Shown here: positions 2-4,736 of the stretch, one piece after another
Position numbering within the stretch: position 1 is the first letter of the stretch
Layout: each line of letters starts with the position of its first letter
Source: a virus
Lineage: Duplodnaviria > Heunggongvirae > Uroviricota > Caudoviricetes
Length of the DNA stretch: 4,828 nucleotides
IMG/VR virus record: IMGVR_UViG_2526164661_000010
Coordinates: 1 to 4,828 of that record
Strand: one strand, 5' to 3'
Position numbers and translations under genes: made by a program
The notes under the pieces: generated by a model
The model's database searches: none
What the model was told of the DNA's origin: nothing
Seen by the model: only the letters and a program-made list of their open reading frames with translations

Positions 2-1273
2 ACCCAAATCGCAAGCACGGCTTATGTGATGGCCGCGATTGCCGCCCTTGTAGATTCGTCACCTGATGCACTGAACACGCTGAACGAGCTGGCGGCGGCG
101 CTGGGAAACGACCCGAATTTTGCGACCACCATGACTAACGCGCTTGCGGGTAAGCAACCGAAAGATGCCACCCTGACGGCGCTGGCCGGGCTTGCTACTG
201 CGGCAGACAGGTTTCCGTATTTTACGGGGAATGATGTCGCCAGCCTGGCAACCCTGACAAAAGTCGGGCGGGATATTCTTGCGAAATCGACCGTTGCCGC
301 TGTTATCGAATACCTCGGTTTACAGGAAACGGTAAATCAGGCTTCTGGAGCATTACAGAAAAACCAGAACGGCGCAGATATTCCGGGAAAAGATACCTTC
401 ACCAAAAATATTGGGGCCTGCCGCGCATATGGCGCATGGCTGGATATTGGTGGCGATAATCAGGTCTGGACAACCGCGCAATTTATTTCGTGGCTGGAGA
501 GTCAGGGAGCATTTAACCATCCTTACTGGATGTGCAAAGGCTCATGGGCTTATGCAAATAATAAGGTCATTACAGATACAGGTTGCGGAGATATTTGTCT
601 TGCAGGTGCTGTGGTGGAAGTTATTGGCACTCGCGGCGCAATGACCATACGCGTTACCACGCCGAGTACGTCCAGCGGCGGCGGAATTACTAACGCTCAA
701 TTCACTTATATTAATCATGGTGATGCTTATGCTCCTGGCTGGCGACGGGACTACAACACGAAAAATCAACAACCTGCATTTGCTTTAGGGCAAACAGGAA
801 GCACTGTCGGAAATGATAAAGCTGTTGGCTGGAACTGGAATAGCGGGGTCTATAACGCAAGCATTGGTGGCGCAACAGCATTAATCCTCCACTTCAATAT
901 GAATACGGGGAGTTGCCCTGCCGTACAGTTCCGCGTGAATTACAGGAATGGCGGTATTTTTTATCGTTCAGCGCGTGATGGTTATGGATTTGAAGCTGAC
1001 TGGTCAGAGTTTTACACCACAACCCGCAAACCCTCTGCGGGGGATGTTGGTGCATATACTCAGGCAGAATGTAACTCAAGGTTTATTACAGGTATTCGCC
1101 TTGGCGGTCTGTCATCTGTTCAGACATGGAATGGTCCCGGCTGGTCTGACAGGTCAGGTTATGTCGTTACGGGTTCAGTTAACGGAAACCGTGATGCATT
1201 AATTGATACAACTCAGGCAAGGCCAATTCAGTATTGCATTAATGGAACGTGGTATAACGCGGGGAGTATTTAA
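2..1273 (+). CDS. Phage tail fibre protein, 5'-truncated at window edge: conserved shaft segment fused to variable C-terminal tip (Sv, currently in the expressed orientation)
   Basis: Reading frame is open from nt 2 with no stop before the TAA at 1271-1273, so the GTG/ATG at 26 in the ORF track is internal. Translation contains the segment [63 protein letters not shown], which I recognise as the conserved region of Mu S / P1 S / P2 H-type fibres. The 26-bp crossover site sits in-frame at 303-328. Confidence 0.9.
303..328 (+). repeat. Invertase crossover site, left (gix/cix/pix-like, 26 bp): ttatcgaatacctcggtttacaggaa
   Basis: Two mismatches to the Mu gix sequence TTATCCAAAACCTCGGTTTACAGGAA as I recall it. 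It is present as an inverted copy at 3537-3562 and lies inside the fibre ORF at the constant/variable junction. Confidence 0.85.
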
Positions 1274-1275
1274 TC

Positions 1276-1809
1276 ATGATGCACTTAAAAAACATTACTG
1301 CTGGCAACCCTAAAACAAAAGAGCAATACCAGCTAACGAAACAATTTAACATCAGATGGCTTTATACAGAGGATGGGAAAAACTGGTATGAGGAACAAAA
1401 GAACTTTCAGCCTGATACGTTGAAAATGGTCTATGACCATAACGGCGTTATTATTTGTATTGAAAAGGATGTTTCGGCAATTAATCCGGAAGGCGCAAGC
1501 GTCGTTGAATTACCTGATATTACAGCAAATCGCCGTGCTGACATTTCGGGTAAATGGATGTTCAAAGATGGCGTAGTGGTAAAGCGAACTTATACCGGGG
1601 AAGAGCAGAGGCAGCAGGCGGAAAATGAAAAGCAAAGCCTGTTGCAACTTGCCAGAGATAAAACCCAGTTATGGGACTCACAGCTACGGCTGGGCATCAT
1701 TTCCGACGAGAATAAACAAAAATTAACCGAGTGGATGCTCTATGCGCAGAAAGTCGAATCCACAGACACCTCCAGCCTGCCAGTAACATTTCCCGAACAA
1801 CCTGAATGA
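1276..1809 (+). CDS. tfa: Tail fibre assembly protein (Tfa chaperone) paired with the expressed fibre tip
   Basis: ATG at 1276 sits 2 nt after the fibre stop, with GGGGAG at 1261-1266 as RBS. The 177-aa product begins [18 protein letters not shown] and contains [12 protein letters not shown], typical of e14 TfaE / Mu U-like assembly proteins. Stop TGA at 1807-1809. Confidence 0.9.
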
Positions 1810-1812
1810 GAC

Positions 1813-1839
1813 AAGGCCCGATAGCGGGCCTTAATTTTT
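1813..1839 (+). terminator. Hairpin terminator between the convergent tfa genes
   Basis: Stem aaggcccg (1813-1820), loop atag, stem cgggcctt (1825-1832), followed by aattttt. It is flanked by the inverted final codons of the two tfa genes (cctgaat at 1801-1807 and attcagg at 1841-1847). Confidence 0.6.
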
Positions 1840-2365
1840 ATTCAGGCTTTTGTGGCCATTCAGGATTTGCCGTATCCACACGGCTTACCATAACACTGTA
1901 GCGTTCCCATGACTCCAGTCGTGCGCGTTCCTCATCCGTCGCCATATTCAGCCTGACGGCGCGTTCCAGTGGCTGAATAACGCTTTCCGCTTCGGAAAGT
2001 AACGTGGCCTTTTGTGATTCGGCCTGTTGTTGCTGTTCGTCTGCCGTATAAATCCGTTTAACCACAGCTCCATCCTTAAACATCCACTTCCCTGAATCAT
2101 CGGCCCGACGATTGGCTGTTATATCGGGGACTTCAACAACGCTAAAGCCTTCAGGATTAAGTGTGGAGGCATCTTTAGTGATGGCTACAATAATATTATT
2201 TTCATCGTAAACAATCTTTATTGTGTCTGGCTGAAAATTCTTTACCTCTTCATACCAGTTCTTCCCGTCTTCAGAGTAAAGCCAGATAACTCCGTGCTTC
2301 TTTGTTAACTCATACTGCTCCGGTGTTTTAGCATTACCAGCTTTTATGTTCTTTAAGTGCATCAC
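1838..2365 (-). CDS. tfa: Tail fibre assembly protein, alternative copy (tfa') paired with the silent fibre tip
   Basis: The 175-aa product begins [47 protein letters not shown], resembling e14 TfaE as I recall it. The N-terminal two thirds are similar to the + strand Tfa and the C-terminus is divergent. Start is GTG at 2365 or ATG at 2362. Confidence 0.9.
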
Positions 2366-2366
2366 A

Positions 2367-3536
2367 TTAAACGCTCGCTACATTATACCAGGTGCCATTT
2401 ATATACTTTTGAACAGGTCTGTAATAAACGCCAGCTATATTATCGGCAGAGTGGGACCCTGTATCCTGAACATTTATACCAGACAGTACATGACCTGAAG
2501 GGCACTGGAAATTCCATGTTTGCCAGTTGTTCACTCCATAATATTGCTGTGAACCAAGTCTGATATCTCTCACATAGCGGGAATCAATGTTACCCCAGTT
2601 GCTTGGTTGTATCTGACCGTTTACAGCAAATATCACTGAGTTATCTGTATTTCGCTGACTATAGAAATGCCAGCCTGAATCATCACCAAGCTCTGCAACA
2701 GTTGGTCTTGACGAATTTCCCCACAAGTTAAATGATGCATTACGGGCAGAGTTATTTGCACTTGCAAGAGTGAATAGCTTACTTTCCCCAGCCTGAATAC
2801 CCTTTAATGATATTGCTGAACCATTTCTAAAGCGGAATACATGCACACCATTAGCATAAGCATCCAGCACCCCATCACCATTTTGTTTAAACCCGGTATC
2901 GTTATCTCCTAAAACAATCGAGTTACCGCCAAGAGCACTGGATGTTCCGATGCCCAGTGCACCATTCAATTGACCGCCAGATAATGACAACGCCCCAACC
3001 TCAGCAGCAGTCGGTTTAATGTGCGAACTGTAAATTACATATACAGTTCCATCTGTCAGACCTGTTGGTTTATTCGCTGTATAAGATGGTGATGTATGAA
3101 TCGTTACGCTGGCGTTACTGGTATAATCCCACTGAATATTAACACCTGTGGCGTAATTACCTATTTCAACATAAACATCATAGGTATTACCGGATGTATT
3201 CACCCATGCAAAATTAGTAAATCCAACCGATGTCCGTCGCCATAATGCACCAGTAATACCTTTTGGATTCCCATTTCCGGCACGCAGAACCAGCTCAGAG
3301 ATGCCTGCTTGATGCGAGGAGCCAACGTTATACCCTGCACCACCAATCAGGCTTATGTAAACCACGGAACTGGCCTGTGGCATGGTTACAGTTGCCAGTT
3401 TGAACCATCCAGCACCACCACTAAAAGACATGGTTGTTGAATTTGTTGTGCCGATATTACGCAGGAATAGTTTTTTATCGGGAATATCTGCGCCGTTCTG
3501 GTTTTTCTGTAATGCACCAGAAGCCTGATTTACCGT
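2367..3536 (-). CDS. Alternative tail fibre C-terminal variable segment (Sv'), start-less; expressed only after inversion fuses it to the constant fibre region
   Basis: The minus-strand frame is open from the right crossover site through to TAA (reverse complement of 2367-2369). Reading from the site it translates [20 protein letters not shown], identical to the + strand fibre after the left site, then diverges. The ATG at 3431 given by the ORF track is an internal Met, not a true start. Confidence 0.8.
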
Positions 3537-3562
3537 TTCCTGTAAACCGAGGTTTTAGATAA
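3537..3562 (-). repeat. Invertase crossover site, right (inverted copy): reverse complement ttatctaaaacctcggtttacaggaa
   Basis: One mismatch to the Mu gix sequence as I recall it and 24 of 26 identical to the left site, in inverted orientation, 55 nt upstream of the invertase start. Confidence 0.85.
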
Positions 3563-3616: not shown

Positions 3617-4207
3617 GTGCTGATTGGCTATGTAAGGGTATCAACAAATGACCAGAATACAGACCTGCAACGAAACGCTCTTGTTTGTGCAGGATGTGAA
3701 CAAATATTTGAAGATAAATTAAGCGGGACAAAGACTGACCGACCGGGATTAAAACGCGCTTTAAAGCGCCTTCAACAAGGTGACACGCTGGTTGTCTGGA
3801 AACTGGATCGCCTCGGGCGAAGCATGAAACATCTGATTTCTCTCGTCGGGGAACTACGGGAGCGAGGGATTAATTTTCGTAGTCTGACCGACAGCATAGA
3901 TACATCTTCTCCAATGGGGCGTTTTTTCTTCCACGTGATGGGTGCCCTGGCTGAAATGGAACGTGAATTAATTGTTGAACGTACACTGGCCGGACTGGCG
4001 GCAGCGCGCGCACGGGGGCGCACAGGCGGACGTCGACCGAAGCTGACAAAAGAACAGCATGAGCAAATAGCAAGGCTGATTAAAAACGGTCACGACAGAA
4101 AACAACTGGCAATAATTTACAGCATTGGTATATCGACAATTTATCGTTACCACCCCGCAGGAGAATCAAGTGGAACAATTGAGAAGAGTAAACAAAATAA
4201 CCGCTAA
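3617..4207 (+). CDS. pin: Site-specific DNA invertase, serine recombinase of the Gin/Pin/Cin/Hin family
   Basis: From the GTG at 3617 the translation reads (V)LIGYVRVSTNDQNTDLQRNALVCAGCEQIFEDKLSGTKTDRPGLKRALKRLQQGDTLVVWKLDRLGRSMKHLISLVGELRERGINFRSLTDSIDTSSPMGRFFFHVMGALAEMERELIVERT..., near-identical over the catalytic domain to Gin/Pin as I recall them. Catalytic Ser codon at 3641-3643, C-terminal HTH, RBS GGGAGA at 3605-3610. The TTG at 3599 in the ORF track is probably not the real start. The symbol is a family-level guess; gin/cin/pin naming depends on the host element. Confidence 0.9.
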   Translation: MLIGYVRVSTNDQNTDLQRNALVCAGCEQIFEDKLSGTKTDRPGLKRALKRLQQGDTLVVWKLDRLGRSMKHLISLVGELRERGINFRSLTDSIDTSSPMGRFFFHVMGALAEMERELIVERTLAGLAAARARGRTGGRRPKLTKEQHEQIARLIKNGHDRKQLAIIYSIGISTIYRYHPAGESSGTIEKSKQNNR

Positions 4208-4227
4208 TCTGGCCATTAGCGGTTTTT
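4199..4227. terminator. Bidirectional rho-independent terminator between the convergent invertase and tail genes
   Basis: Stem ccgctaat (4201-4208), loop ctggcc, stem attagcgg (4215-4222), then TTTTT (4223-4227) on the + strand. The reverse complement is followed by TTATTTTGTT on the minus strand. The stem overlaps the invertase stop codon. Confidence 0.7.
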
Positions 4228-4235
4228 GTGTTAAA

Positions 4236-4724
4236 TCAGAACAGCCCTTTAACGGAGCTGGCCGCGCTGTTAAGGGATGATGTGACCTTATCTTTGAAGC
4301 CGGACAGCATATCGCTGAACGATGAGGATTGCAGGCGCTCCCGCAAATCCTCATCACAGCGTTCAAGGGTCAGTGAAAATTCTATTTTTTTCGCCTTACC
4401 GTAGCGATCAAATTCAGAGCGGGTCGTATTCGTTCCGGTCAGGACATACATGCCGTAAATCTGCCCGACACCATCAATCAGAGGCCAGGGGCGTCCTGTA
4501 TATGCCTGCGTGGTCAGCAGCGACAGCGACACTTCGCCACCTGTAATTTCAGGATAAAGCACACCGGAAAGCACGATGCGATCATCACCTGCACCGATAT
4601 ACTGCCAGCTTGCTGAACGGTTAACGCGTTCATTTTTCACATGCCGCCAGCTTTTGTTTTGCTGTAACTGCTGATGCGGCAGCGTGCGCAGCTCAAAAAC
4701 AAACATGCCGTAGATCATCATCAT
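4236..4724 (-). CDS. Phage tail protein, P2 gpU-like
   Basis: About 162 aa, MMMIYGMFVFELRTLPHQ...SGVLYPEITGG...GRPWPLIDGVGQIYGMYV..., which matches my recollection of the P2 gpU family (size, MMM start, LYPE.TGG and WPL.DG..IYGMYV motifs). RBS GAGGAG lies 8 nt upstream of the ATG at 4724; the ORF track starts at the in-frame ATG at 4730, only 2 nt from the RBS. Product assignment is from memory, not a search. Confidence 0.7.
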   Translation of the reverse strand: MMMIYGMFVFELRTLPHQQLQQNKSWRHVKNERVNRSASWQYIGAGDDRIVLSGVLYPEITGGEVSLSLLTTQAYTGRPWPLIDGVGQIYGMYVLTGTNTTRSEFDRYGKAKKIEFSLTLERCDEDLRERLQSSSFSDMLSGFKDKVTSSLNSAASSVKGLF

Positions 4725-4736
4725 GACCATGACTCC

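Follow-up and report, generated by a model that had tools for sequence, protein, structure and literature searches.

Layout of the invertible fibre segment

The window, by which we mean the whole analysed stretch of 4,828 nucleotides, starts within a tail-fibre gene on the plus strand (2-1273) whose reading frame is open at the 5' end of the window. The gene comprises a constant part, which extends to a left inverted repeat, and an expressed variable tip of the Mu S' type; Pfam gp37_C matches residues 255-348 of the encoded fibre. The left repeat (303-391, 89 nt) lies within the fibre reading frame, contains the gix-like crossover site TTATCGAATACCTCGGTTTACAGGAA and is 93% complementary to a right repeat of 89 nt at 3474-3562, which also bears a gix-like site. 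The outer end of the repeat carries TTATC.AA.ACCTCGGTTTACAGGAA, which is gix-like when set against the gix consensus. Since the crossover sits inside the fibre reading frame, both tips are read in frame, and a common 22-residue peptide is encoded across the repeat by both strands.

As in other segments of the Mu type, two convergent cassettes, each made of a fibre tip and a tfa gene, face each other between the repeats. The plus-strand tip ends in a C-terminal module of about 68 residues (1067-1273), which contains SGYVVTG and is read here as a putative docking module for Tfa. It is followed by a tfa gene of 177 codons (1276-1809), the orthologue of Mu U', with an N-terminal domain at about residues 1-100 and a helical C-terminal domain at about residues 108-177. 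On the minus strand, a promoterless alternative tip (2367-3554) runs in frame through the right repeat. Its C-terminal module of about 74 residues (2367-2591), which contains SGHVLSG, was placed by alignment to the plus-strand tip, 5YVQ_A and 8JU3. The accompanying tfa gene (1838-2365, minus strand, 175 aa) was assigned as the Mu U orthologue from its similarity to chain B of PDB entry 5YVQ and a Caudo_TAP match. Only 1-4 nt separate the fibre stop from the tfa start on either strand: the fibre TAA lies at 1271-1273 and the tfa ATG at 1276 on the plus strand, and the fibre stop lies at 2367-2369 and the tfa start at GTG 2365 or ATG 2362 on the minus strand. A hairpin, AAGGCCCG-ATAG-CGGGCCTT, occupies positions 1813-1832 between the two tfa genes, where a terminator-like site was detected on the plus strand only.

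Beyond the right repeat lies a serine DNA invertase gene of the Gin/Pin/Cin type (3617-4207, plus strand), for which the likely start is GTG at 3617, giving MLIGYVRVST. The product matches Pfam Resolvase (E = 2e-50) and HTH_7, as expected of the invertase of a Mu-type segment, and gin holds the equivalent position in the homologous Mu locus. A gene for a P2 GpU-like tail protein (4236-4730, minus strand; Pfam PF06995, E = 1.5e-38) provides the genomic context.

Nucleotides 303-3562 match Mu DNA in two pieces with 92.5% identity, and the Mu record annotates the matching genes as S', U', U, S and gin. The surroundings of the locus match E. coli prophages at approximately 95% identity, and those of its relatives comprise GpU, a tape-measure gene and Tail_P2_I. 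By its sequence, the locus is homologous to the G segment of phage Mu and lies within a P2-like prophage tail module. The order of elements is that of Mu (constant fibre part, gix, tip and tfa, inverted tfa and tip, gix, invertase). It differs from Mu in lying in a P2-like tail module instead of the Mu genome and in its second tip, which is not Mu S and is strongly S-like in the last ~85 residues only. Both orientations of the segment occur among relatives of the window (as distinct from the window's own strain), with the same Tfa cassette adjoining either the invertase or the constant fibre part (L086 versus L087; L091/L092 versus L093; L094/L095 versus L096). The serine invertase very probably flips the 3.2-kb segment between the two gix-like repeats inside the tail-fibre gene, so that the constant fibre N-terminus is joined to either of two tips, each with its own Tfa gene.

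Shared and divergent parts of the fibre tips and Tfa proteins

A preliminary description of this DNA had stated that the two tips are dissimilar over most of their length and share a C-terminal motif, which it placed at 1084-1273 and at 2367 to about 2560. Our comparisons bear this out. A BLASTP search between the variable parts downstream of the inverted repeat returned a single significant alignment, covering the last 68-77 residues with 38% identity (E = 2e-7). In a shuffle test, the last 75 residues scored 104 compared with 27 ± 5 for shuffled sequences (z = 15), a score that none of 2000 shuffles equalled; the variable parts without these residues scored 30 compared with 42 ± 7, i.e., below chance. 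The shared block as measured here (1067-1273 and 2367-2591) is close to the one proposed before, and the fibre and Tfa motifs quoted at that time agree with the pairwise alignments.

Across both tips, the module follows the consensus RLG...SG[YH]V[LV][TS]G...RP[IV]Q..ING.WYN, and 9 columns of our alignment of the eight module types (A5) are invariant, namely R13, G15, G33, P55, Q57, I60, G62, Y65 and N66. Over the last ~70 residues the tips are homologous to the C-terminal domain of Mu S/S', and Mu S, Mu S' and the short tail fibre of Pectobacterium phage phiTE (PDB 9CUY) all end in this module. The plus-strand cassette is about 97% identical to Mu S'/U'. Residues 94-415 of its fibre are near-identical to PDB 8JU3 ('Tail fiber protein S, S''), and the tip aligns with residues 433-503 of 5YVQ_A. 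The C-terminus of the minus-strand tip aligns with the C-termini of 8JU3 and 5YVQ_A and with the phiTE short fibre 9CUY. This second tip is not Mu S itself: it strongly resembles Mu S in the last ~85 residues only, with a weaker likeness farther upstream, and in the minus-strand tip region the DNA matches to phages D108 and P88 end at nt ~2411-2426.

The two Tfa proteins of the window are 59% identical overall and align with one 2-residue gap. As described before, they share approximately their first 110 residues and then diverge: identity is 72% for amino acids (68% for nucleotides) over residues 1-112, and 35% (40% for nucleotides) over residues 113-177. The plus-strand Tfa is 97% identical to Mu U' (Mup51) and the minus-strand Tfa is ~92% identical to Mu U (5YVQ chain B, E = 3e-104). 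With 127.8 and 128.9 bits compared with a cut-off of 22.1, both proteins match Caudo_TAP (Pfam PF02413; E = 4e-37 for the plus-strand Tfa) to their last residue, and each gene lies immediately downstream of a fibre gene, as is typical of this family. The Tfa C-termini, although diverged, are still recognisable as homologues. Mu displays the same pattern: S resembles S' in the C-terminal module, and U resembles U' in the N-terminal region.

Two alternative origins of these similarities have to be weighed. The preliminary description spoke of unrelated tips that converge on a shared motif, which would imply that a similar C-terminus arose independently in each. While the upstream parts of the tips, which have no detectable similarity, would fit such a scenario, the likeness covers ~70 alignable residues and not a short motif, and the module is known in at least eight graded variants in addition to the solved fibres of Mu S, Mu S' and phiTE. 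Furthermore, a recurrent junction, (N/D)xDSRYV(R/K)D(I/V)RLG, connects the module to at least five different upstream regions. Among the variants, module type 7 was found joined to at least five unrelated upstream regions, and module type 5, that of the window's minus-strand tip, to at least four. Because the module is homologous and occurs at a recurrent junction with many upstream regions, it has the character of a shuffled domain, and we regard independent convergence as scarcely credible. For the Tfa proteins, the N-terminal similarity might stem from a recent exchange of sequence (gene conversion or recombination) between the two inverted gene copies and not from functional constraint. 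Their N-regions indeed form an imperfect inverted repeat (arms at 1277-1340 and 2301-2364, 77% complementary). However, with the 68% nucleotide identity over residues 1-112 and agreement in 43% of third positions of conserved N-region codons, synonymous sites are near saturation. For this reason gene conversion was rejected as the cause, and we hold it to be highly improbable. The 43% agreement at third positions indicates that the N-region similarity is old and was maintained by selection at the protein level. The fibre C-terminal module is best read as a homologous mosaic unit that is shuffled by recombination onto many upstream regions. A search of a set of 5.8 billion proteins with a profile of the eight module types returned short partial enterobacterial proteins only, from which no architecture could be read.

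Tfa domains and their association with fibre modules

An AlphaFold2 model of Tfa (mean pLDDT 74) displayed a mixed alpha/beta fold at residues 1-80, a low-confidence hairpin region at residues 84-103 and helices at residues 108-138 and 144-162. Consistent with a division at this point, PHROG families split Tfa at residues 93/101, and the matches of further Tfa families (phrog_105, phrog_188) are confined to residues ~101-177. Together with natural chimeras and the occurrence of the C-domain on an unrelated N-domain (both described below), the model and the PHROG split reveal the two-module architecture of Caudo_TAP proteins. For TfaMu, PMC9608196, which summarises North et al. 2019, describes an N-domain that binds the distal part of the fibre and a helical C-domain that is conserved family-wide and proposed to drive trimerisation. 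That fibre folding needs Tfa, which binds the tip, is likewise stated for Mu U in PMC9608196 and PMC8174754.

In order to see which part of Tfa follows the fibre tip, we surveyed 118 distinct cassettes from 107 sources, pairing each Tfa with the fibre ORF that ends beside it. The sources were IMG/VR loci and genome assemblies picked to represent Tfa N-domain variants, and they cover enterobacterial relatives retrieved by U- and U'-like queries; a scan of genome contigs with the U-type C-domain yielded at least one locus. Across the 118 cassettes, clustering gave 8 module types for the last 70 residues of the fibre (70% identity) and 10 N-domain types for Tfa residues 1-85 (88% identity), and Tfa residues 113-177 exist as two alleles only, the U-type and the U'-type. 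A Mantel test over all 118 cassettes is inflated by redundancy (every feature pair gave r = 0.47-0.82), and we therefore used type-level tests with one representative per type combination. Among the resulting 16 cassette types, module identity correlated with N-domain identity (r = 0.29, p = 0.003), and no correlation was found between module and C-domain identity (r = 0.02, p = 0.37).

The association between module and N-domain is many-to-one and modest. Module types 5, 6 and 7 retain one N-domain type throughout, and the S'-type module was seen with N-domain types 1, 5 and 6. It was also seen with N-domain type 9 on the 1.2-kb contig L084, and this odd pairing occurred on that contig only. 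Module types 2, 5, 6 and 7 were each seen with both C-domain alleles; module type 3, which is closely related to type 2, was seen with U' only. Of the 120 top-ranking homologues of U', all except four retain at least 90% identity in the C-domain, while their N-domains group into 15 clusters. Averaged over the ten N-domain types, nucleotide identity is lowest in the N-domain (74%), intermediate in the linker (87%) and highest in the U' C-half (93%).

Clear Tfa chimeras were found among the U' homologues, e.g., the N-domain of the window's U joined to a U' C-domain (P0046/P0111). Four predictions about such chimeras were fixed beforehand, namely that the upstream fibre module should suit the N-domain and not the C-domain. 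Three of the four held outright (P0111/L089, P0090/L090, P0036). In the remaining case (P0005), the fibre upstream carried module type 3, which is closely related to the type that had been predicted. The chimeras P0046 and P0009 were first encountered on contigs shorter than 2 kb, where misassembly is conceivable, but the same chimera types are present on complete chromosomes (L089, L090).

It had further been proposed that the divergent C-terminus of each Tfa is matched to its own tip, or itself takes part in receptor recognition. Within the window the C-termini are indeed the divergent part, with 35% identity, and the U' allele occurs mostly with the S' tip in the sample anchored on U'. In addition, according to PMC8174754 and PMC10579305, TfaMu is retained at the end of the fibre, where it assists the binding of LPS. 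However, the survey speaks against this proposal. Only two C-domain alleles exist among the 118 cassettes, the U' allele retains its mean of 93% nucleotide identity across ten N-domain types, and four module types occur with both alleles. At locus L090, both cassettes carry module type 7 and N-domain type 10, yet one has the U' and the other the U C-domain. At locus L097, a Tfa of 137 residues combines a U-type C-domain (74% identity over 69 residues) with an unrelated N-domain and adjoins a fibre with an unrelated end (...NMYWTAIGY). The match of other Tfa families to the C-part only points in the same direction. Since two C alleles recur across module types and one of them is fused to an unrelated N-domain, the Tfa C-domain appears to be generic and not tip-specific, and we consider a role of the C-termini in tip or receptor specificity very unlikely.

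By comparison, the other part of the earlier proposal, that a shared fibre module is recognised by a common Tfa domain, agrees with the Mu S-U structure as summarised in PMC9608196, and with the type-level pairing of module and N-domain. Taken together, it is very probable that this is an invertible Mu-type segment in which a homologous tip module docks the N-domain of Tfa and the C-domain is generic. Our own observations comprise the layout of the locus, the homologies, the mosaic structure and the way in which domain types go together, whereas physical binding of the TfaMu N-domain to the Mu S tip is taken from the literature, with the Mu S-U crystal structure as the direct evidence. On these grounds, the Tfa N-terminal domain (approximately residues 1-100) would dock on the ~70-residue C-terminal module of the fibre, and docking would start folding and trimerisation from the fibre C-terminus. 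The C-domain, with its two helices at about residues 108-162, is probably the generic oligomerisation and assembly module of the Caudo_TAP family and persists as two old alleles, U-type and U'-type, without tracking the tip type. Both tips bear related versions of the module, which would account for the relatedness of the two Tfa N-domains (72% identity). By analogy, we infer that N-domain binding of the TfaMu type applies to both cassettes of the window, extrapolating from secondary accounts of the Mu S-U complex. As the 3' end of the fibre gene and the 5' end of tfa are contiguous, their co-variation could also reflect recombination linkage instead of co-adaptation. The reading of a shared module with a shared Tfa domain restates what is known for Mu.

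The central block and comparison with known systems

The stop codons of convergent tfa genes are 26-29 nt apart, and the hairpin between them is conserved across loci, with paired changes in the stem (GGCCCG/CGGGCC versus GGCCCA/TGGGCC). The hairpin at 1813-1832 presumably serves as a terminator for both tfa genes. In the first sample, 78 of 78 complete convergent pairs combined one U-type with one U'-type C-domain, and after the loci retrieved with the U-type query were added, all 83 distinct pairs were heterotypic. This heterotypic C-domain pairing is a small regularity and possibly a new one.

The pairing of one U with one U' could itself be under selection. Long palindromes are unstable in E. 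coli, and homotypic pairs might be selected against because two identical tfa 3' halves, arranged tail-to-tail with a gap of 28 nt, would create a palindrome whose arms measure ~200 bp. Such selection is suggested by the uniform result for the 83 distinct pairs with their 26-29 nt spacers, by heterotypy at a locus with equal N-domain and module types on both sides (L090), and by the N-/C-domain chimeras, which record several past recombinations at the domain junction. However, descent explains the pattern equally well, with the U' C-half, the terminator and the U C-half kept as a backbone while the outer cassettes change. All loci are related, so the 83 pairs are not 83 independent trials, and the loci were collected through U- and U'-like queries. 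We therefore treat selection on the pairing as a tentative idea that is rather unlikely to be correct. The central block could instead be a conserved backbone, with the outer cassettes replaced through recombination that has the constant fibre/gix region at one end and the conserved linker at the other. The broader proposition that all Mu-type invertible segments keep a heterotypic U/U' pair around a conserved hairpin as a design constraint, through palindrome avoidance or as a fixed homology block, is similarly doubtful. If it were true, the divergent Tfa C-termini would reflect genome-stability architecture and not protein function.

Serine invertases combined with alternative fibre C-termini and Tfa genes are also known from the P1 C segment, the e14 P segment and p15B (Gin/Cin/Pin/Min). 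Among solved structures, PDB 5YVQ is the TfaMu-fibre complex, reportedly the work of North et al. 2019 (Nat Microbiol 4:1645), and PDB 8JU3 is the Mu(-) fibre, reportedly that of Mori et al. 2024 (Virology 593:110017). The window shares the two-domain Tfa with both entries, and the crystallised chains have close orthologues in it. In cyanophage Pam3, the gp24-gp25 fibre-chaperone complex is built on a similar modular plan (PMC9608196): a variable beta-sandwich at the N-terminus contacts the fibre, and a conserved helical domain at the C-terminus mediates trimerisation. It is a distant relative that does not belong to an invertible segment, and virions lack its chaperone. Across the Tfa family, the N-domain is called 'non-conserved' and the C-domain 'conserved', whereas the window's segment displays the reverse. 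This reversal arises because both tips bear related docking modules and the two C-domains are different old alleles.

The locus re-describes the Mu G segment and the published modular Tfa model, and near-identical proteins have already been crystallised. A Mu-type host-range switch with a shared docking module is real but ordinary, and already known from crystal structures. The results have some practical use for the engineering of fibres: they indicate that, when a fibre is retargeted, its final ~70 residues should be transferred along with the first ~100 residues of Tfa, and that the Tfa C-domain may stay unchanged.

Heterotypic pairing of the Tfa C-domains

The Tfa C-domain occurs as two alleles, U-type and U'-type, named after Mu U (here the tfa on the - strand) and Mu U' (the tfa on the + strand). 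Comparison of the convergent tfa genes of the window (1597-2110) with those of related loci revealed that every distinct pair (83 out of 83) combined one U-type with one U'-type C-domain, and a pair with two like C-domains was not found among the distinct pairs examined (83 related loci). Even at locus L090, where the N-domains and fibre modules are of the same type on both sides, the C-domains were still U-type and U'-type. This heterotypic pairing could reflect a conserved backbone or the avoidance of a palindrome.

At L089, on the chromosome of Salmonella Montevideo, stop codons and frameshifts interrupt the cassette opposite the chimeric Tfa protein P0111 (positions 3035-3700 of L089), indicating that one side of its invertible segment has decayed. 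The 1.2-kb contig L084 was the sole case of an S'-type fibre module beside a type-9 Tfa N-domain, which resembles that of the window's U; this may stem from misassembly of short reads or represent a true exception to the pairing of fibre module type with Tfa N-domain type.

Hairpins between convergent genes

The 28-nt gap separating the convergent tfa genes contains a hairpin at 1813-1832 (AAGGCCCG-ATAG-CGGGCCTT) with a trailing T-run. Comparison across loci showed that it is kept in relatives and that changes in its stem are paired, with GGCCCG/CGGGCC versus GGCCCA/TGGGCC. We infer that this hairpin is a terminator for both tfa genes; the terminator scan called it on the + strand only. The invertase and gpU genes also converge, and a second hairpin separates them (4199-4224); it has a 10-bp stem and is accompanied by T-runs on either strand, and it scored as terminator-like in both directions. 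At the other end of the invertase gene, mechanical calling placed the start at TTG 3599; an alternative start at GTG 3617 would give the N-terminus MLIGYVRVST, with the Pfam Resolvase match beginning at residue 3 of this version.

A motif common to both fibre tips

The two alternative fibre tips share the motif KP(S/T)A(G/A)(D/E)VGA(Y/L), located at 1012-1060 and, on the - strand, at 2985-3035; on its own it gave E=0.09 in the tip-versus-tip comparison. It lies immediately upstream of the C-terminal module in the + tip and about 130 residues farther upstream in the - tip, which therefore has an extra region between motif and module.

The inverted repeat, and inversion in relatives

At 89 nt, the inverted repeat of the window (303-391 and 3474-3562) is far longer than the gix-like site, which lies at the outer end of the repeat. 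Inward of this site, about 60 nt are identical on both sides and code for the same ~20 fibre residues on each.

Some relatives of the segment (L094-L096, L106) adjoin an IncFII RepA gene and hence lie on plasmid-like or phage-plasmid replicons, not in Mu-like or P2-like prophages.

Across genomes, a given Tfa cassette adjoins the invertase in some and the constant fibre part in others, as comparison of L086 with L087, of L091/L092 with L093 and of L094/L095 with L096 showed. The presence of a cassette in both positions provides natural evidence that these segments invert.
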